From sequence record PP129558: a stretch of DNA of 64,000 nucleotides; one strand, written 5' to 3'. The notes under the pieces were generated by a model. That model did not search any database. It was not told the origin of the DNA and saw only the letters and a program-made list of their open reading frames with translations. Shown one piece after another: positions 7,647-64,000 of the stretch (the first letter of the stretch is position 1; the number at the start of each line of letters is the position of its first letter). The position numbers and the translations under genes are program-made. This stretch comes from Escherichia phage vB_EcoM_01.

Positions 7647-9671
7647 ATGAATTTAACAAGACCTAATAGTGCGATAGCCGATCTGGTAGAAGCTACTTAT
7701 CGAAAACGTCGCAGCTTTGAGGCAGGTTTTACATTACGTAATTCCCGTGAAGTTTTGCTGTTAGCAGCAGAAGGGAATTATTACCAATGGAAAGGAACTT
7801 TTCCTAAAGTAGTTCCAGCAAACTCTACGCCAGCCACCACAGGTGGTATTTCTTCCCTTGCATGGCAAAGTGTTGGGACCGCTGATGATATAGCAATTAT
7901 CAATGCCAAGTTTACGGCAGTGCAACAACAGATCGATGATTTGTCAGAAGCAATACCTGAAGCTGGTAAATCGGCTTATCAGATCGCACTTGATAATGGT
8001 TTTGTTGGAACAGAAGCACAATGGCTTGCTTCTTTGAAAGGGGATACTGGTGCTCAACTTAATATTAAAGGATCATTAGCAAGCACTAGTGAACTACCAT
8101 CTACAGGTAACGTTGCAGGGGATGGTTATATCGTAGGTGATGTTATTTACGCTTGGGACGGTTCTGTTTGGAAACTTATTTCTTCTCTTGGACCAGAAGG
8201 GAAATCAGCTTACGAGGTATGGTTGGCAGATGGTAATACAGGATCTGTTTATGACTTTCTTGCCTCTATAAAAGGTGATAAAGGAGACGTTGGTCCTACA
8301 GGTCCACAGGGTGCACCTGGTGTCAACGCTAATGGTTTTGATTATCGTGGGGATTTGCCTTCTACAAGTAACTTACCACAACCTAACTCTGAAAACGTAA
8401 GCCAAGCTTATTCTATCAGTGGTAATCTTTATGTCTCCAATGGGACAGCTTGGGTCAACATGGGTAATATTGTTGGTCCTCAAGGTCCACAAGGTGAGGC
8501 AGGTAAAGACGGTCTAGATGGAACAGATGGAGATGAAGGGAAATCTGCATATCAAAGTTGGCTGGATGCTGGTAATGAAGGGACAGAAGTAGATTTTATT
8601 GCCTCGCTTAAAGGTCCAAAAGGAGACAAGGGAGAGCAAGGAGAACGAGGACCACAAGGCGAATTAGGTCCACAAGGACCAGTGGGTGCAACAGGATCAG
8701 GTTTAGAGATTATCGGGGTTCTGAACAGCGAAGCTGAACTTCCTCCGACTGGAGAAGTAGGTGACGCATATAAAATTAATAATGATTTGTATGTTTGGGT
8801 TCAAGATGCTACGGAATGGATGAATGTTGGTAGTCTTGGAGGAACATCAATTACAGCTAAAGGTCATGTTCCGAACAGTGAAGCTCTACCTGTTTACAAT
8901 AACTATGGTGATGCTTACTTAACTGAAGACACTAGTAATCTTTACATCTATACCTACGATCAAGACACCAATTCCGCATCTTTTGTTGACATGGGAAGTA
9001 TTAAAGGCGACAAAGGTGAAAAAGGGGATAAAGGAGATAAGGGTGATCCTGGAACAAACGGAACCAACGGTACTGATGGGACCAACGGTAAGGACGGCGC
9101 ACAGTGGTTTGTAGCAACAACTAATCCAGTCACAGGAGACGGTGTTATCAATGATTACGCCTTCAATACTACTACTGGAGCAGTATTTAAGAAAACAGAT
9201 TCTTCTACGTGGACACTTATAGGAACTCTTCCTAGTATACCAGAAGCCCCTCAAGACGGCTTGACGTATGGTCGTTCTGATGGAAACTGGATCGAAATAT
9301 CAGGATCAGATCCTACGGAAGCTATAACACCAACTAAAGTTACAGCAGGTTTCATGGAACTTGAAACAACTACTGCCAACTCTGGAGCATCTTGGACTCC
9401 TTCTGGAACTTCCAATATGTATGTTGTTACAGTAACTGACGCTCTGACAGTTGGAGCATGGCCTGGTGTCACTGGCTCTACAAAACCTAAAGCGTTTTCA
9501 GCAATGATTTATTTGATTCAAGATACAACGGGACACACGGTTACACTAGATGCGTCTTATGGAGCACTAAATGATACAGAAATAGCAACTACTGCTAACG
9601 CAGTAACAATTTTGCAATTAACGTATCCTGGTGTGGGTGATATCGTGGACATGGTTGTTGTAACACGATAA
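7647..9671 (+). CDS. collagen-like repeat tail fibre protein
   Basis: 674 aa; several Gly-X-Y runs (GPQGPQGEAGKDGLDGTDGDEG; GPKGDKGEQGERGPQGELGPQGPVGATG; GDKGEKGDKGDKGDPGTNGTNGTDGTNGKDG) and three copies of GKSAY(Q/E)..L(D/A)..G..F(L/I)AS(L/I)KG. Confidence 0.8.
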   Translation: MNLTRPNSAIADLVEATYRKRRSFEAGFTLRNSREVLLLAAEGNYYQWKGTFPKVVPANSTPATTGGISSLAWQSVGTADDIAIINAKFTAVQQQIDDLSEAIPEAGKSAYQIALDNGFVGTEAQWLASLKGDTGAQLNIKGSLASTSELPSTGNVAGDGYIVGDVIYAWDGSVWKLISSLGPEGKSAYEVWLADGNTGSVYDFLASIKGDKGDVGPTGPQGAPGVNANGFDYRGDLPSTSNLPQPNSENVSQAYSISGNLYVSNGTAWVNMGNIVGPQGPQGEAGKDGLDGTDGDEGKSAYQSWLDAGNEGTEVDFIASLKGPKGDKGEQGERGPQGELGPQGPVGATGSGLEIIGVLNSEAELPPTGEVGDAYKINNDLYVWVQDATEWMNVGSLGGTSITAKGHVPNSEALPVYNNYGDAYLTEDTSNLYIYTYDQDTNSASFVDMGSIKGDKGEKGDKGDKGDPGTNGTNGTDGTNGKDGAQWFVATTNPVTGDGVINDYAFNTTTGAVFKKTDSSTWTLIGTLPSIPEAPQDGLTYGRSDGNWIEISGSDPTEAITPTKVTAGFMELETTTANSGASWTPSGTSNMYVVTVTDALTVGAWPGVTGSTKPKAFSAMIYLIQDTTGHTVTLDASYGALNDTEIATTANAVTILQLTYPGVGDIVDMVVVTR

Positions 9672-51973: not shown

Positions 51974-53146
51974 ATGGCGAAGACGTTAGAACAGTATATA
52001 GGAGAATGTAAACCAATAGCGGAAGCTAAAGGATATGAGATTATAGGGATTGTAGAGCCATTTAAAGNAGGTGTGCACACGAAGATGATCAACTTCTGCC
52101 CTAATCNNNNNNNNNNNNNNNNNNNNNNNNNNNNNNNNNNNNNNNNNNNNNNNNNNNNNNNNNNNNNNNNNNNNNNNNNNNNNNNNNNNNNNNNNNNNNN
52201 NNNNNNNNNNNNNNNNNNNNNNNNNNNNNNNNNNNNNNNNNNNNNNNNNNNNNNNNNNNNNNNNNNNNNNNNNNNNNNNNNNNNNNNNNNNNNNNNNNNN
52301 NNNNNNNNNNNNNNNNNNNNNNNNNNNNNNNNNNNNNNNNNNNNNNNNNNNNNNNNNNNNNNNNNNNNNNNNNNNNNNNNNNNNNNNNNNNNNNNNNNNN
52401 NNNNNNNNNNNNNNNNNNNNNNNNNNNNNNNNNNNNNNNNNNNNNNNNNNNNNNNNNNNNNNNNNNNNNNNNNNNNNNNNNNNNNNNNNNNNNNNNNNNN
52501 NNCTGCCTGCTCTCACGATGAGTATGTGCAAGCTGGGGTGTGTGATGGTAAGTTTTATGTCGCAGGGAATGACCTTAAACAAGGGAAGATTCCTTGCCGT
52601 TGTGCAACTAACTGTCATTACACAGAAGCACAGATTACCTATAGGGTAAAAAAGGCAGTAGAAAGGAAAGGGTATATCTGGGTAGGTTGGATCGGGAAAC
52701 CGTCTGTAAGATTAGGTAAGTTTAAATATGGATGTAAGAAACATGGGGTACAAATAGGACGTGCCAGTGGTTTGTTAAATCATGGTACTGGTTGTCCGCA
52801 ATGTGCTAACCAGACACAACAACAATGTTACATTAACCACATCCATGATGAACAAGGTATTCTCTGTGCTTTGAAATTTGGAATTGCCAATAATAGTGAT
52901 CGCCGTATCAAAAAACAAAATAGTCATAATGTGTTTACTATGAAACAGGTCCAAGTGTGGCACTTCCCTACTGTGAAGCAATGCAAAGATGCAGAGAAGC
53001 GTTGTAAGCGTGTCCTTCACACGGAAGCAGTGAGCAAATATGCTATGCCAGATGGCTACACAGAGACAGTGGAGTTATCTTGCATGGCATCAATACAAAA
53101 CATTTATAAACTTTATGGTGGAACATTACAGGAGGAAACATGTTAG
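51974..53146 (+). CDS. Cys-rich protein (zinc-ribbon motifs), interrupted by gap
   Basis: C-terminal 214 aa after gap has CRCATNC and CPQC; N-terminal 44 aa before gap; internal sequence unknown (52107-52502 N). Confidence 0.4.
   Translation: MAKTLEQYIGECKPIAEAKGYEIIGIVEPFKXGVHTKMINFCPNXXXXXXXXXXXXXXXXXXXXXXXXXXXXXXXXXXXXXXXXXXXXXXXXXXXXXXXXXXXXXXXXXXXXXXXXXXXXXXXXXXXXXXXXXXXXXXXXXXXXXXXXXXXXXXXXXXXXXXXXXXXXXXXXXXXXXACSHDEYVQAGVCDGKFYVAGNDLKQGKIPCRCATNCHYTEAQITYRVKKAVERKGYIWVGWIGKPSVRLGKFKYGCKKHGVQIGRASGLLNHGTGCPQCANQTQQQCYINHIHDEQGILCALKFGIANNSDRRIKKQNSHNVFTMKQVQVWHFPTVKQCKDAEKRCKRVLHTEAVSKYAMPDGYTETVELSCMASIQNIYKLYGGTLQEETC
52107..52502. other. scaffold gap (N-run)
   Basis: 396 n. Confidence 0.95.
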
Positions 53147-53698: not shown

Positions 53699-54237
53699 GA
53701 ATAACTGACGAATATGTATTCTTCTTTTCACATAAAGATGTGTTTAGTAATTGGTATATTGCACCCTTTACAGAAACTGAACCAGGTTACAATGAGACTT
53801 TCTGTTGTGTTGAGCAATATATGATGTGGCGTAAGGCTTTGCTGTTCAAGGATCATGCGATTGCAGCAGCTATCCTTGATCACTCGACTATACGTGACAA
53901 CGAGAGAAAACAAGCATACTACAAACGTATGGGTCGAGCGGTATCTGGTTTTAATAATGATATGTGGGAAGAGAACCGTGAGCGTATTGTTATGCGAGGT
54001 TTATGCTTGAAATATGTACAGAATCCAGATTTGTATGCAGACTTACACCTTTACCAATACAAAACGTTTGTTGAAGCAAGTCCTTACGATAAGGTTTACG
54101 GTATTGGAATGGGAATGTATGAACCAGGGGTGCTAAACCCTGCCACCTGGAAAGGGCAAAATCTTTTAGGTAAATATCATAACAAACTGATCGAAATACT
54201 TTTCCCAGACAAAATACCGCAAAGACGATATTTGTGA
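53695..54237 (+). CDS. NADAR-domain protein (YbiA-like)
   Basis: 180 aa; FFFSHKDVFSNW, EQYMMWRKA, RMGRAVSGF...MWEENRERIVMRGL..KYVQNPDL, EASPYDKVYGIG align block-for-block with E. coli YbiA. Confidence 0.75.
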   Translation: MRITDEYVFFFSHKDVFSNWYIAPFTETEPGYNETFCCVEQYMMWRKALLFKDHAIAAAILDHSTIRDNERKQAYYKRMGRAVSGFNNDMWEENRERIVMRGLCLKYVQNPDLYADLHLYQYKTFVEASPYDKVYGIGMGMYEPGVLNPATWKGQNLLGKYHNKLIEILFPDKIPQRRYL

Positions 54238-54478
54238 TATTTTAACTTTTTTCATTTTTAGAACAAAGGCGTCACTTTGTAGCACAGAAATAAGGCTCCT
54301 ACAGCACCGTAGAGAGCCTGTTATTTTGTCCTATACAAACCCTTGTCTTTTTCAGTTTGCATCACTAGGACTCGATCTGAGTGGGTTCCTGAAGGTCTGC
54401 CAATAAGATTAAAGGTTATCTCAAATTCCCATTACCTATTATCTCAAAAATCCCTCAAATTATTTAAACTTTTTAAGA

Positions 54479-54666
54479 ATTTACAAAAGTGAAAGTTGAA
54501 AACCAAAATTTAAAGTTTAGGAAAATTATCTTAAAATGTCAGATACAAAACAAAACTCAAAAGTCAAGGAAAATTTTAAAAATTTTGCGCGCCCACAGTA
54601 TTTAAAGTTTTTTTGCTTTTACAAAAATGAAAGTACAAAAGCAAAATTTAAAGTTTACAAAAATTT
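54479..54666. repeat. pair of ~45 bp direct repeats (about 88 percent identical) plus recurring tttaaagttt
   Basis: copy 1 at 54479-54526, copy 2 at 54617-54666. Confidence 0.6.
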
Positions 54667-54705
54667 ATGCAGATGGGAATGAGAAGAGTTCTCATATGGA
54701 AATGC

Positions 54706-54784
54706 AAATGATAATGATTCGCATTTAGGTTTATAAATGAGATTGATTCTTATTTGATAAGGTAAATGATAATCATTCTCATTT
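54706..54784. promoter_or_regulatory. two Fur-box-like motifs
   Basis: aaaTGATAATGATTCGCATTt (54706-54726) and aaaTGATAATCATTCTCATTt (54764-54784); resemble Fur box GATAATGATAATCATTATC. Confidence 0.4.
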
Positions 54785-55010
54785 AGAGAATGACGCGCAG
54801 GGGCGGTGTTTGTCTCGCGCTCCCGTGTCCCCTCGCCATGTAATAAGAATAACAGATCCAGCCAGGAAAGCAAGCGATTATTTTATCTTTACATTTCTTT
54901 ACAAATATATAGCGCCCAGCCTACCGGCGATCAACCTTCCAACCAGCGCCCTGGTATGTTAGCCCCGCCTTTACGCCGTGGGGTGGCGCTTCCTCTCCTG
55001 TATGTAAAAC

Positions 55011-55039
55011 AGTATAAGCCCGATCCCTGGGCTTGTCAA
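55011..55039 (-). promoter_or_regulatory. near-consensus sigma70 promoter on minus strand within GC-rich island
   Basis: TTGACA (rc 55034-55039), 17 nt, TATACT (rc 55011-55016). Confidence 0.45.
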
Positions 55040-55041
55040 GA

Positions 55042-55308
55042 TTATTTTTTGTTTTCTTGCCAGGATAGGACACCTAACCAAAAATGCATATCGCCCCGCG
55101 CCCCTGGCGGGATCTTGCTTTCCCCGCCGCCACTGCAAGCCCATAAATAACCATCAGCGAACGGATCAAAATGTTCTATCTCTTCCACTTTATGATCGCC
55201 CAGGTTGAGAACTGTTTCAACCTTTAAGCCCGTTGCGCTTGCTACCTGGTGCACCGTGCCGCCTTGCCAGCCCAATGAGTGCATAAGGTGTAATGTAGTA
55301 TTTGTCAT
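55042..55308 (-). CDS. hypothetical protein (GC-rich island)
   Basis: 88 aa ORF with non-repetitive composition; weak RBS. Confidence 0.3.
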   Translation of the reverse strand: MTNTTLHLMHSLGWQGGTVHQVASATGLKVETVLNLGDHKVEEIEHFDPFADGYLWACSGGGESKIPPGARGDMHFWLGVLSWQENKK

Positions 55309-55495
55309 GGTATCGCCCTTTCTTTGTTGTGCGCCCAGGTTGGCGCGGTAGAAAGATGATAGCCGTTTCCTTCATATATAGCAAGCAAAAAGAAAATAAA
55401 AAAGATTGAAAAAGTGGTTGACGTTCCTCACCTGGTAGCNNNNTANTCNACCGTCCACCAACAAAAAACATCATTCATCACCTGGAGTTAAAATC

Positions 55496-55693
55496 ATGGC
55501 AACATTGCACATTGTGGCGAAAGCAGGACAAATCAGCGTCGTGGTAAACGGTTTTACTGAGTTCAGTCATCCCCAGGATGATCATGAAACGGTTTTATCT
55601 TTCATTGATTCCCTGTTAGAAATGGGAGTCATTACAGAAGACCAGCACGCTACAAAATGCAAGCGCGTTAATCAAATTGCAGGAATAGAATAA
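55496..55693 (+). CDS. hypothetical small protein
   Basis: 65 aa; GGAG RBS. Confidence 0.5.
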   Translation: MATLHIVAKAGQISVVVNGFTEFSHPQDDHETVLSFIDSLLEMGVITEDQHATKCKRVNQIAGIE

Positions 55694-56949: not shown

Positions 56950-57003
56950 CATATCGCCGCCACTGGCATAATATTTACCACGTAGGGCGGCAATGGTGCC
57001 GCT
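56946..57003 (+). promoter_or_regulatory. promoter plus 5' hairpin module
   Basis: TTGACA (overlapping upstream stop)-17-TAATAT-ttaccacgtag-GGCGGCA atgg TGCCGCC. Confidence 0.55.
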
Positions 57004-58692: not shown

Positions 58693-58748
58693 TTGACACG
58701 GGAAAGAAAAAGAGTAAACTGTATTACGTAGGGCGGCAATAGTGCCGC
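58693..58748 (+). promoter_or_regulatory. promoter plus 5' hairpin module
   Basis: TTGACA-16-TAAACT-gtattacgtag-GGCGGCA atag TGCCGC. Confidence 0.55.
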
Positions 58749-58975: not shown

Positions 58976-59037
58976 TTGACGATAATTTGTTATCTGATAG
59001 AATGTATTTCGTAGGGCGGGGCAATAAGGCAACGCCC
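58976..59037 (+). promoter_or_regulatory. promoter plus 5' hairpin module (variant)
   Basis: TTGACG-16-TG-a-TAGAAT-gtatttcgtag-GGCG...CGCCC. Confidence 0.5.
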
Positions 59038-59055
59038 ATTAATGAGGGTAGAATC

Positions 59056-59163
59056 ATGTTAGAGAAAATTTTCACGGTTGTAATAGTGGGCCTGGCGTTA
59101 TTGGTTGGAGTGGTTGCAACTATGGCTAACATGATCCTATCTTCCCACGGTATCGGCTAAAAG
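59056..59163 (+). CDS. small hydrophobic peptide (35 aa)
   Basis: GAGGGTAGAATC RBS; MLEKIFTVVIVGLALLVGVVATMANMILSSHGIG; not in track. Confidence 0.45.
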
Positions 59164-59248
59164 AGAGACACAACATGAAAACAGAAATCATTATTGAAAT
59201 CATCAACGGCTATAAAGAAGCCTTTATTTTTGCTGAATCACACATCTG

Positions 59249-59303
59249 NNNNNNNNNNNNNNNNNNNNNNNNNNNNNNNNNNNNNNNNNNNNNNNNNNNN
59301 NNN
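59249..59303. other. scaffold gap (N-run) with duplicated flanks
   Basis: 59094-59240 is repeated at 59304-59450. Confidence 0.9.
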
Positions 59304-59384
59304 GGCGTTATTGGTTGGAGTGGTTGCAACTATGGCTAACATGATCCTATCTTCCCACGGTATCGGCTAAAAGAGAGACACAAC

Positions 59385-59771
59385 ATGAAAACAGAAATCA
59401 TTATTGAAATCATCAACGGCTATAAAGAAGCCTTTATTTTTGCTGAATCAGCAAGGGATCATGAAGGTAATTTTATCGATAACTTAGACGATTATGATTT
59501 TTCTCCTAGCGCGGACGAACGGATCGCCCAGGATGTAACAGCCTTTATTAATGCTAATCTTGCCGCTATCTCTGAGGCAATGAGCGACGGCGCAACAGCC
59601 AACCAGATCGGGAATGATTTACATTTTACCCGTAACGGTCACGGCGTAGGATTTTGGGATCGCCCTGAAATATACACCACTAACACGGCGAACCGCCTAA
59701 CAAATGCAGCTAAGTTTATGCCGAACGTGTCGGCTTACATTGGTGAAGATAATTTGATTTATATTGAATAA
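59385..59771 (+). CDS. hypothetical protein (array gene)
   Basis: 128 aa; AAGAGAGACACAAC RBS; truncated duplicate of 5' end at 59175-59240. Confidence 0.55.
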   Translation: MKTEIIIEIINGYKEAFIFAESARDHEGNFIDNLDDYDFSPSADERIAQDVTAFINANLAAISEAMSDGATANQIGNDLHFTRNGHGVGFWDRPEIYTTNTANRLTNAAKFMPNVSAYIGEDNLIYIE

Positions 59772-59777
59772 AAAGTA

Positions 59778-59889
59778 TTGACACAGATCGCCAGTGTGCT
59801 AATATTTACCACGTAGGGCGGCAATGGNNNNNNNGANACNGATCGCCAGTGTGCTAATATTTACCACGTAGGGCGGCAATGGTGCCGCC
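59778..59889 (+). promoter_or_regulatory. promoter plus 5' hairpin module (duplicated by assembly artifact)
   Basis: TTGACA-16-TAATAT-ttaccacgtag-GGCGGCA atgg TGCCGCC; repeated after n block 59828-59840. Confidence 0.55.
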
Positions 59890-59907: not shown

Positions 59908-60207
59908 ATGGAAACTATCGCTATTGTTACCGTAGAAAAACTGGTTGTTGGTGATGTATTCGCGTTAATGGTGCCTAACAGCAGCAAGCTGGGCGCTTAT
60001 GAAGTAATGGATCATAAAAATGAATCATTTGGCGACGGTTGCACAATGGCGGTAAAATCTTTAAGGGATGGAATCATCCGCCAGGCTAACTGGCACAAAG
60101 GGAATCAAGTCGGTTTAATATCAGCTAATTTCTTGCCAGAAGAGCAAACATTAGATCAACTGTCAGGCGGTAAGACGTTAGCCGAACTACTGGAAACAGC
60201 GATCTAA
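59908..60207 (+). CDS. hypothetical protein (array gene)
   Basis: 99 aa; GAGGAAAG RBS. Confidence 0.55.
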   Translation: METIAIVTVEKLVVGDVFALMVPNSSKLGAYEVMDHKNESFGDGCTMAVKSLRDGIIRQANWHKGNQVGLISANFLPEEQTLDQLSGGKTLAELLETAI

Positions 60208-60228: not shown

Positions 60229-60298
60229 CCCATTAAACGCAATAGGAAGAGGATAGACACATGAAAAAGATGATCGCAGTAGTTGCCCTGGTTGTTGG

Positions 60299-60429
60299 NN
60301 NNNNNNNNNNNNNNNNNNNNNNNNNNNNNNNNNNNNNNNNNNNNNNNNNNNNNNNNNNNNNNNNNNNNNNNNNNNNNNNNNNNNNNNNNNNNNNNNNNNN
60401 NNNNNNNNNNNNNNNNNNNNNNNNNNNNN
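60299..60429. other. scaffold gap (N-run) with duplicated flanks
   Basis: about 150 bp before the gap is repeated after it (60430 onward). Confidence 0.9.
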
Positions 60430-60541
60430 CATTAGATCAACTGTCAGGCGGTAAGACGTTAGCCGAACTACTGGAAACAGCGATCTAATCGACAAGGGGC
60501 GGCAACGCCCCCATTAAACGCAATAGGAAGAGGATAGACAC

Positions 60542-60832
60542 ATGAAAAAGATGATCGCAGTAGTTGCCCTGGTTGTTGGTATTAACGCGCCTGTACTGGC
60601 TAATGAGTTGCCAGAATCCATCACGCTAACCGATATCAACGCAGTGAACCGGATCGGTGTTAATTATCGCCTATGCCTTGCCGCTAAAACTTTCCAGGAC
60701 GGCACGACAGAATACCACGGATTCGAGGGTATACGCTGCGGTGAGCTTGCACGCGACCTTAAGGAAGATCCAGACCTTGAGGCCATACCGATGACCGTAA
60801 ACGGTAAAGCTTACGTAAACCGCCAACAATGA
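60542..60832 (+). CDS. secreted small protein
   Basis: 96 aa; signal peptide MKKMIAVVALVVGINAPVLA; GGAAGAGGA RBS. Confidence 0.55.
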   Translation: MKKMIAVVALVVGINAPVLANELPESITLTDINAVNRIGVNYRLCLAAKTFQDGTTEYHGFEGIRCGELARDLKEDPDLEAIPMTVNGKAYVNRQQ

Positions 60833-61216: not shown

Positions 61217-62456
61217 ATGAAAGAAGTTATGATCCTCAAAAAATCACCTATTTTACGTGGTGGCTTTATCGCTTACTCTGATGATCTGTTAATTGCAACA
61301 GTTGCAAAAATACTAAAATCAGAAGATGACAGTAAANNNNNNNNNNNNNNNNNNNNNNNNNNNNNNNNNNNNNNNNNNNNNNNNNNNNNNNNNNNNNNNN
61401 NNNNNNNNNNNNNNNNNNNNNNNNNNNNNNNNNNNNNNNNNNNNNNNNNNNNNNNNNNNNNNNNNNNNNNNNNNNNNNNNNNNNNNNNNNNNNNNNNNNN
61501 NNNNNNNNNNNNNNNNNNNNNNNNNNNNNNNNNNNNNNNNNNNNNNNNNNNNNNNNNNNNNNNNNNNNNNNNNNNNNNNNNNNNNNNNNNNNNNNNNNNN
61601 NNNNNNNNNNNNNNNNNNNNNNNNNNNNNNNNNNNNNNNNNNNNNNNNNNNNNNNNNNNNNNNNNNNNNNNNNNNNNNNNNNNNNNNNNNNNNNNNNNNN
61701 NNNNNNNNNNNNNNNNNNNNNNNNNNNNNNNNNNNNNNNNNNNNNNNNNNNNNNNNNNNNNNNNNNNNNNNNNNNNNNNNNNNNNNNNNNNNNNNNNNNN
61801 NNNNNNNNNNNNNNNNNNNNNNNNNNNNNNNNNNNNNNNNNNNNNNNNNNNNNNNNNNNNNNNNNNNNNNNNNNNNNNNNNNNNNNNNNNNNNNNNNNNN
61901 NNNNNNNNNNNNNNNNNNNNNNNNNNNNNNNNNNNNNNNNNNNNNNNNNNNNNNNNNNNNNNNNNNNNNNNNNNNNNNNNNNNNNNNNNNNNNNNNNNNN
62001 NNNNNNNNNNNNNNNNNNNNNNNNNNNNNNNNNNNNNNNNNNNNNNNNNNNNNNNNNNNNNNNNNNNNNNNNNNNNNNNNNNNNNNNNNNNNNNNNNNNN
62101 NNNNNNNNNNNNNNNNNNNNNNNNNNNNNNNNNNNNNNNNNNNNNNNNNNNNNNNNNNNNNNNNNNNNNNNNNNNNNNNNNNNNNNNNNNNNNNNNNNNN
62201 NNNNNNNNNNNNNNNNNNNNNNNNNNNNNNNNNNNNNNNNNNNNNNNNNNNNNNNNNNNNNNNNNNNNNNNNNNNNNNNNNNNGGAAAATTGAATATCGC
62301 GAGATGATCGACGATGAAACGGGGCAGGATTTTAGCGAGTACGTTTATATTCGTTCCGAGACATTAGCCGAACGTTTGATCGAGAAAATGAAAGCAAAAA
62401 ATAAAATTAATTTATCTCATTGGATTGATATAACAAACGATCCAGCTTATCAGTAA
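61217..62456 (+). CDS. coding region interrupted by large gap (one or more genes)
   Basis: N-terminal 40 aa with RBS before gap; C-terminal 57 aa after gap ending at 62456 followed by terminator; 61337-62283 is N. Confidence 0.35.
61337..62283. other. scaffold gap (N-run)
   Basis: 947 n. Confidence 0.95.
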
Positions 62457-62559: not shown

Positions 62560-63000
62560 TCGCGGTATCGAGCTAATCAACCATTAAACGAATAACCATA
62601 CCTCCCAGGGCAACAGGCTGTTAGAGAGCCATTTATAGCGGTTAAAATCGATCAACAACCAACAACAAACCATCAAAAACACCCTTTTACCTCCTTTCTA
62701 GTGCAATGATAACCATTATCATCTACCCATGATTATCTATGCAATATAAGCGCATAACTATAATGTTGATAATAGTTCGCAACAACTAACTAACCAACAA
62801 CCTAAAACAACAAGCAAACTAATCATAATCAAAGGAATAATAGCAAGATGATTGATAACGACAAACAATAAAACCATGATGAATACTAAGCAAGATAACG
62901 ATAACACGACAAAACAACCAACTAACGAACAATAACAAACGAAACCATTAAAATAATAACTATTAGCAAAATAGTGCCTGAATGAAATCATTACAAAACG
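62560..63000. repeat. strand-asymmetric A+C-rich low-complexity non-coding tract
   Basis: Plus strand dominated by caacaa/aacaa/ataac units, depleted in G and T; no credible ORF. Confidence 0.6.
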
Positions 63001-63023
63001 AATCATTCACAGAGTCATCATTA

Positions 63024-63240: not shown

Positions 63241-63448
63241 AAGGAAATAATTAGCAAGATGAATAATTGCACGTAGCAACATGAGCGAATAGCGACAGNN
63301 NNCATAGTGTNNAAACATACAGGAAAATAAAGGCTAATCTTTTGGGGCGAATACTATCGCGTAGCGATATGTTGAGCAAGTTCTCTTAAACGTAAATAAA
63401 ATCAGAAAATTCTTGATTTGTTTTGGTTTTTATGTTAATAAACGTTTA

Positions 63449-63647
63449 AATAATAATCATTCTCATATAAATAATAGTCGGCTTGTCATGAGCGGGATTA
63501 GTTGACAATGTTCCGTCATATGATGAAGTTGCCAAGCCATTGATAAATAAGTGTTTGTGTGATTTATAATCAGGTGGCCCACCTTGTCGCTATGTTGGCA
63601 TGAGCCTTGCATAAGTCATTGAATACGAATGATAATTATTCTCATTC
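63449..63647. promoter_or_regulatory. two further Fur-box-like motifs
   Basis: aATAATAATCATTCTCATa (63449-63469) and aATGATAATTATTCTCATT (63627-63647); same core as 54706-54784. Confidence 0.35.
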
Positions 63648-63714
63648 GCATGATATTTGGGAATTGTCGCTGCGTGGACCTGACGGCCCGAAAATTCGCG
63701 TTAAGCACTTCTTA

Positions 63715-64000
<286 letters not shown>

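Follow-up and report, generated by a model that had tools for sequence, protein, structure and literature searches.

Fur boxes are textbook elements, and Fur control of cargo genes carried by temperate phages is also known, stx1 on the Shiga-toxin phages being an example. The sitABCD genes on lambdoid coliphages are likewise Fur-controlled cargo (PMC6969025). In such cases a host Fur box on phage DNA puts a phage-borne function into the Fur regulon, and the locus described here would resemble them in this respect; but temperate cargo has single boxes before lysogenic-conversion genes with an iron link, whereas the phages considered here are virulent and have their boxes in the terminal repeat and in non-coding parts of the core genome. 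The Fur boxes of E. coli itself (ryhB, fhuA, fecI, and fepB-entC) have the same 19-bp register and the same 7-1-7/9-1-9 palindrome as the phage boxes, which score equally high or higher; however, 6-bp overlapping clusters are typical of E. coli operators, whereas the phage boxes form arrays in a 29-bp register, in a virulent phage and with no iron gene adjoining. Among virulent phages, cyanophages have co-opted host nutrient regulators in the form of PhoB pho boxes and NtcA sites. The logic would be the same, a lytic phage placing sites for a host nutrient sensor in its own promoters, but the cyanophage sites serve another regulator and another nutrient and precede recognizable auxiliary metabolic genes, which is not so for the Fur-type boxes. 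Lastly, Repeat Region 3 of T5, the injection-stop region (iss), has the same box sequence, clustered and non-coding within a terminal repeat as here; T5 has a 10-kb repeat, paired DnaA boxes, and the 7.9% nick, whereas here the repeat is 329 bp, and DnaA boxes and the nick are absent. Searches of the literature for Fur together with T5, rV5, phAPEC8, or virulent phage gave no earlier description of operator-grade Fur-box arrays in core non-coding regions or terminal repeats of strictly lytic phages, and turned up no transcriptome of such phages from iron-limited or delta-fur cells.

The window, i.e., the whole 64,000-nucleotide stretch analyzed (PP129558), comes from a phAPEC8-like Escherichia myovirus in the genus Phapecoctavirus of the subfamily Stephanstirmvirinae; it was assembled by scaffolding, contains N gaps, and is 95–97% identical to ESCO13, DE16, and ukendt. 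It contains six 21-bp palindromes of the form AAATGAnAATnATTnTCATTT, three in each of two non-coding regions. Region 1 holds box A (54706–54726, AAATGATAATGATTCGCATTT, 20.47 bits against the Fur matrix described below), the weak box B (54735–54755, AAATGAGATTGATTCTTATTT, 16.2 bits), and the promoter-proximal box C (54764–54784, AAATGATAATCATTCTCATTT), which at 24.55 bits is the top site of the window and keeps its place in all relatives; together with a degenerate first unit, box 0 (54678–54695, AATGAGAAGAGTTCTCAT, 13.9 bits), these stand in a strict 29-bp register. Region 2 holds box 2a (62704–62724, GCAATGATAACCATTATCATC, 20.19 bits), ~670 bp left of the terminal repeat, and two boxes within that repeat, 2b (63448–63468, AAATAATAATCATTCTCATAT, 21.15 bits) and 2c (63627–63647, GAATGATAATTATTCTCATTC, 20.19 bits). 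Over the window, 15 strand-matches to the motif with three or fewer mismatches were observed, where 1.85 were expected. The initial annotation had reported four copies, and all four are present as described (boxes A, C, 2b, and 2c), but this was an under-count: box B, the degenerate unit at 54678–54695, and the strong box at 62704–62724 were missed. It was correct in placing GATAATCATTCTC one base away from positions 7–19 of GATAATGATAATCATTATC.

A 19-bp log-odds Fur matrix was derived from 11 E. coli K-12 Fur-controlled promoter regions (fepA-fes, fepD-entS, fepB-entC, fhuA, ryhB, fecI, tonB, cirA, fiu, exbB, and fhuE). With a matrix that rests on these 11 sites only and was seeded with the textbook consensus, the training sites themselves scored 15.1–21.9 bits (about 8–18.6 bits in leave-one-out), and five of the window boxes scored 20.19–24.55 bits, equal to or above the 11 K-12 training sites. 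The matrix scan suggested in the initial annotation was thus strongly passed, at or above the level of validated E. coli Fur boxes. Within 60 kb of K-12 DNA that were fetched, every match of at least 15 bits was intergenic and nearly all fell in the fetched Fur-regulated regions; they included sites outside the training set, upstream of fepB and fecA, and one 16.1-bit match in the folE-yeiG region. Eight strand-hits in the window reached 18 bits or more, as against 0.17 expected in Markov-1 windows and only 0.011 in sequence modeled on the two non-coding regions alone. In the genome of ESCO13, which is complete and gap-free at 149,813 bp, all hits at this threshold lay within the homologs of the two regions.

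Each box has inverted-repeat symmetry (7-1-7/9-1-9), seen as plus- and minus-strand hits offset by 6 bp. When 47 boxes taken from 13 phage loci were combined into a symmetrized logo, the result, AAATGA(G/T)AAT(C/G)ATT(C/A)TCATTT, was symmetric out to ±9. Over the 13-bp core, its correlation with the E. coli training sites is r = 0.98; the ±7–9 arms are not a selection artifact because on one side they fall outside the positions that were scored. The phage consensus, AATGAGAATCATTCTCATT, is letter for letter the 9-1-9 Fur motif from Xanthomonas Fur-regulated genes (PMC1790865), and single Fur boxes of Acinetobacter match it as well (PMC3055841). At −4/+4 the phage boxes prefer G/C (GAGAAT...ATTCTC) over the T/A of the E. 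coli consensus; the ATTCTC variant is present in the K-12 ryhB, fhuA, and fecI operators. Zur was considered and rejected: the Zur box GAAATGTTATAnTATAACATTTC, compared as a consensus only, has the AAATG/CATTT arms in common with the phage boxes but not the core, at ~12/20 matches, whereas the 9-1-9 motif of Fur is matched at 17–19/19. As far as binding is concerned, the palindromes are probably Fur-type operators.

In region 1, the hexamer GAGAAT at 54786–54791 (plus strand) is a putative −10 of a rightward promoter that has box C as its spacer. In PVP-SE1, nomo, and CR8, which represent three Vequintavirinae genera, the proximal box likewise occupies the 18 bp between the hexamers of a sigma70-like TTGAAT-18-CAGAAT. 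Fur operators classically lie in the promoter spacer, in the −35/−10 region. At the position of GAGAAT, CAGAAT is found in nine of ten other lineages, with GAGAAT in Phapecoctavirus, where the proposed −35 is also degenerate (GTAAAT); the GAGAAT/CAGAAT hexamer could be an extra Fur half-site instead of a −10. The 19-mer of box C starts exactly 43 bp before the start of an anchor, GGTGTTTGTCTC (54805–54816), with which a conserved GC-rich non-coding element begins (54792–55010, plus strand), and in seven of nine lineages the last box starts exactly 43 bp upstream of the conserved anchor GGTGnTTGTCTC.

A distant search with region 1 found box C and ~220 bp to its right to be conserved as DNA well outside the genus. 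The comparison took in W22 and FKP3 (Justusliebigvirus), PVP-SE1 and SalP219 (Seunavirus), CR8 and F5M1E (Certrevirus), nomo (Vequintavirus), A73, and IMG/VR contigs. These relatives carry one to five boxes each, at 17–24 bits, and the ~220-bp element is 70–90% identical in DNA sequence across the Stephanstirmvirinae and Vequintavirinae. Because a scan of IMG/VR for the combined box, promoter, and anchor pattern gave only four loci, the diversity of lineages was taken from GenBank phage records. In rV5-like phages the element takes the form of two shorter tandem units, with one Fur box per unit.

The GC-rich element is annotated as a CDS in phAPEC8 (phAPEC8_00257 in JX561091; 3568–3909 of locus L032; the window ORF 54806–55150), but a coding reading was rejected, since the lineages differ by indels of 1 nt and 10 nt that disrupt the frame. 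Rfam gave no family, whether the whole window was scanned at the gathering threshold or 54200–55500 at E ≤ 1, and no counterpart of the element was found on the host chromosome in 5,426 E. coli genomes. Single-sequence shuffle z-scores for RNA structure ran from about −1.6 to +1.2 over both strands, none of them significant; the alignment gave an RNAalifold covariation term close to zero (+0.34), with double changes in 3 of 25 pairs, and several G-U pairs favor the plus strand. The element might give rise to a pair of sense and antisense RNAs, or might act as DNA in a way that depends on transcription.

The element is followed by a convergent sigma70-like promoter on the minus strand (55011–55039; TTGACA-17-TATACT, 11/12 matches), which is conserved in the relatives. 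A GC hairpin at 55016–55034 exactly fills the 17-bp spacer between the TTGACA and TATAnT hexamers of this promoter-like site; its sequence is wholly different between lineages, but the pairing is kept (the window, A73, CR8, F5M1E, SalP219, and FKP3), and no T-run adjoins it on either strand. A hairpin in a promoter spacer is unusual. The 88-amino acid ORF at 55042–55308 (minus strand, phrog_19316) is the sole minus-strand gene in a rightward block, and it adjoins the element in the relatives too.

Directly left of the Fur-box array is a pair of AT-rich 72-nt direct repeats (54456–54527 and 54594–54665, plus strand), 82% identical and 138 bp apart, with sub-repeats TTTAAAGTTTA and TTTACAAAA and with sigma70-like hexamer pairs TTTACA-18-CAAAAT; these could be promoters reading through the array or sites for another factor. 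A −10 followed by a GC-rich segment, as in region 1, is also the layout of the ordinary early promoters of the phage, which consist of TTGACA-17-TAnnAT and then a hairpin element, GGGCGGCAATGGTGCCGC. A 20-bp "PHIRE" element, TAGGGCGGCAATGGTGCCGC, occurs on the plus strand at 56983–57002, 58729–58748, and 59869–59888 (three copies where none is expected). The PHIRE hairpin lies ~10 nt after the −10 of sigma70-type early promoters and is therefore probably a 5′ stem-loop on early transcripts.

The phAPEC8-like phage Schickermooser has a 328-bp terminal repeat according to Korf et al. (PMC6563267); in its sequence record the first 329 bp are exactly the last 329 bp. The corresponding direct terminal repeat, 97% identical to the 329-bp prefix and suffix of Schickermooser, is at 63375–63703 in region 2 of the window. 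Boxes 2b and 2c are inside it, with centers 84 bp from the left and ~66 bp from the right boundary, respectively. It is because the terminal repeat is located there that the window contig stops 13 bp after the repeat, and that several GenBank records begin or end in region 2. Justusliebigvirus alia has a homologous 1.8-kb non-coding region with four boxes of 19.6–25.9 bits, and its distal pair is spaced ~180–195 bp apart, as in the window. When ukendt and alia were aligned, identity was 74% inside the two boxes and 45% outside (Fisher P = 5e-4), a figure obtained with one box mis-registered by the aligner; the boxes have thus been kept where their flanks diverged. Promoter matches in region 2 are weak; the best, ATGATA-17-GATATT over box 2c, is 8/12. 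The left part of the region is strongly A/C-rich on the plus strand, with units of the CAACAAAC type at a 128-bp period (ukendt locus L002 3363–3637, window ~62660–62940). Its sole ORF, at 62758–63006 on the minus strand, is low-complexity and hydrophobic, and is probably spurious.

We favor the reading that the palindromes are genuine operators for host Fur, the phage having no Fur of its own, and would put its chances as even. Each genome would then have six sites occupied by iron-loaded Fur dimers. In region 1, the last and very strong box of the 29-bp array lies over the core of the rightward promoter-like element, which would transcribe into the ~220-bp non-coding element and face the convergent promoter; with the box so placed, Fur-Fe would shut off the rightward transcript in an iron-replete cell and release it in an iron-starved one. 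In region 2, Fur would gate or organize the first events at the genome ends. This mechanism, in which Fur-Fe represses both the conserved rightward promoter of region 1 and early events in the terminal repeat, could as easily be right as wrong; the sequence shows identity with Fur sites, their confinement to these regions, their conservation, and their geometry, and from these we infer that Fur binds, which way it would regulate, and what would follow for the phage. The initial annotation had suggested iron-responsive regulation by host Fur, or by a phage regulator with similar specificity, acting on adjacent promoters. The Fur part agrees with the matrix scores and the 9-1-9 logo, whereas the phage regulator is disfavored, as discussed below. 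Action on adjacent promoters would fit the conserved promoter-like geometry of the proximal box in region 1; the boxes of the terminal repeat have weak promoter matches.

Several observations count against the operator reading. In Phapecoctavirus the degenerate −35 of region 1 and the possible half-site at GAGAAT/CAGAAT detract from the promoter, and the boxes in region 2 overlap only 8/12 promoter matches. No iron-related gene was found near either region, only NADAR and gp30.8-like domains, the other neighbors being PHROGs of unknown function; the absence of an Rfam match for the downstream element also weighs here. Repression by holo-Fur in healthy, iron-replete hosts would be odd for a virulent phage. 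Finally, box arrays without the anchor exist elsewhere, and the array itself may therefore be the functional unit. If Fur does bind, widely used therapeutic and model coliphages would be sensing or manipulating the iron status of the host, or doing both. In an infected animal, bacteria are normally iron-limited.

The anchor-less arrays came from a scan of IMG/VR for perfect boxes, AAATGANAATNATTNTCATTT, which gave at least 120 loci; among the matches listed, at least 46 loci had two or more boxes of at least 17 bits within 400 bp, and some had arrays of five or six boxes in non-coding DNA without an anchor. Arrays of four to six near-perfect palindromes of this kind are present at L060 5780–5910, L141 11420–11670, L151 5020–5230, and L106 1975–2115, the first having five boxes at 23–29-bp spacing. 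Such arrays could act as a sponge: at least six high-affinity sites per genome, multiplied by hundreds of copies, would titrate Fur and not control a phage promoter, so that the host iron-uptake regulon and RyhB would be derepressed and would supply iron for the phage ribonucleotide reductases. Multicopy Fur boxes do derepress the Fur regulon, which is the principle of the Fur titration assay, and the phage encodes both class Ia and class III ribonucleotide reductases by annotation. The recurrence of four to six near-perfect boxes in unrelated viral contigs with no common downstream element points the same way, as does the variation in box number from one to five across the relatives while box quality is kept. 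A sponge, however, would call neither for a strict distance of 43 bp from the proximal box to a promoter-like element nor for a place in the terminal repeat, and induced uptake may not help within one short lytic cycle. We consider it unlikely that titration is the purpose of the boxes.

T5-like phages were also among the matches of the distant search with region 1. EC122 and phiR2-01 have three to six boxes of 18–23 bits beside paired DnaA boxes in the inner part of the long terminal repeat, two DnaA boxes being next to the Fur-type boxes in EC122. The boxes of T5 itself, placed on its annotated reference, fall on copies 1–4 of "direct repeat C" and on palindromes E, G, and I (9468–9637), of which G (AAATGAGAATCATTATCATTT) scores 23.3 bits, I 19.3 bits, and E 17.6 bits. 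They are just left of the 7.9% nick, and the calculated first-step-transfer shear point is at T5 9618 (Davison). Davison described this region as repeats, palindromes, and DnaA boxes, and neither that analysis nor two later T5/BF23 papers link Fur to the injection-stop repeats. A cluster of palindromes of the direct repeat C (DRC) type inside the terminal repeat is common to T5 and the window (boxes 2b and 2c). An isolated Fur-type box of 20.7 bits, GGAACTGATAATCATTATC, is found at 228–246 of T5 AY587007 (locus L030), ~240 bp from the left physical end and inside the dmp coding sequence; its placement is reminiscent of the terminal repeat of the phAPEC8 type, with boxes close to the repeat ends. 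Since the same sites are injection-stop palindromes in T5, and two of those in the window are in the terminal repeat, an early step of infection is probably tied to host iron status in these phages. A Fur link would give a concrete handle on the role of the T5 injection-stop palindromes, a question that has been open for more than 50 years.

The location at genome ends also bears on an architectural role, in which Fur or the palindromes themselves would build a nucleoprotein structure serving DNA entry, end protection, terminal-repeat cutting or packaging, or replication initiation, with the T5 injection-stop region as counterpart. IHF at lambda cos provides a parallel. The placement of two boxes in the 329-bp terminal repeat, 66–84 bp from its boundaries, would suit such a structure, as would the regular 29-bp register and the T5 boxes at 9468–9637, which are in the terminal repeat at the first-step-transfer boundary and adjoin the 7.9% nick. 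Among the 33 full-length contigs in the IMG/VR matches listed, 10 perfect boxes were within 400 bp of a contig end versus 3.6 expected (~3-fold, P = 0.0016), which could reflect a terminal location but could also be an assembly effect induced by repeats. Region 1, on the other hand, is ~8.6 kb from the terminus and resembles a promoter unit. The paired DnaA boxes of the T5 type are absent from the window: neither region has a consensus DnaA box, and the sole nearby match is an adapter artifact. Two-step DNA transfer depends in T5 on A1/A2, and homologs of these were not found in the window or in ESCO13. An architectural role seems to us quite unlikely. Both titration and an architectural role are compatible with operator function, and either would keep Fur binding and change its purpose.

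These ideas might be combined: in large virulent phages of enterobacteria generally, Fur-box arrays would be docking platforms for host Fur, located at the genome ends or close to them, the T5 palindromes would be Fur sites, and iron status would enter into the pause and resumption of DNA entry, end protection, or the earliest transcription, the arrays also stripping Fur from the host chromosome. We offer this as speculation that is rather improbable as a whole. The boxes do occur in three lineages (phAPEC8/phi92-like, rV5/PVP-SE1-like, and T5-like phages) as well as in other contigs, and the recorded hosts are all Enterobacterales.

A phage-encoded protein other than Fur might recognize the palindromes, their resemblance to Fur boxes being convergent or coincidental. 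Most genes around both regions have no known function and could hide an unrecognized regulator, and the phage consensus departs from that of E. coli in its G/C at −4/+4; but the G/C form is a documented Fur-box variant, given the ATTCTC of ryhB, fhuA, and fecI and the Xanthomonas consensus. A tblastn search of the window and of ESCO13 gave no Fur homolog (E > 5). A regulator common to T5 and this phage was also considered and rejected, because the T5 pre-early proteins, A1 and A2 included, lack homologs in both the window and ESCO13, even though the boxes are present in these unrelated lineages. We therefore hold a dedicated phage protein to be very unlikely. Chance matches without function, in AT-rich regions where Fur-like words such as GATAAT are common, have next to no probability in view of the eight hits against 0.011 expected in region-modeled sequence and the conservation of box positions across subfamilies.

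Returning to the assembly, positions 63717–64000 of the window are not phage DNA: Ns lead into a Nextera transposase adapter (CTGTCTCTTATACACATCT) that carries index/flow-cell sequence, and the rest is a long poly-G of the kind produced by a two-color sequencer, and the tail from ~63717 is an artifact. Runs of N occupy 52060–52560 and 61340–62280 of the scaffold. Duplicated sequence flanks N gaps (59175–59339 versus 59385–59771, and 60261–60488 versus 60542–60832), identical ORF starts (MKTEIIIEIINGYKEAFIFAES... and MKKMIAVVALVV...) are on both sides of a gap, and ORF ends are repeated across gaps (ALLVGVVATMANMILSSHGIG at 59194–59370 versus 58987–59160; LDQLSGGKTLAELLETAI at 60261–60488 versus 59908–60207). 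These duplications look like gap-filling or scaffolding artifacts and not real duplications. Records named "Campylobacter phage" (B15, A150, D#), "Acinetobacter phage vB_AbaM_ABPW7", "Pseudomonas", and "Serratia" are 91–96% identical to these coliphages, which suggests host mislabeling in GenBank or contaminating coliphages in those isolations.
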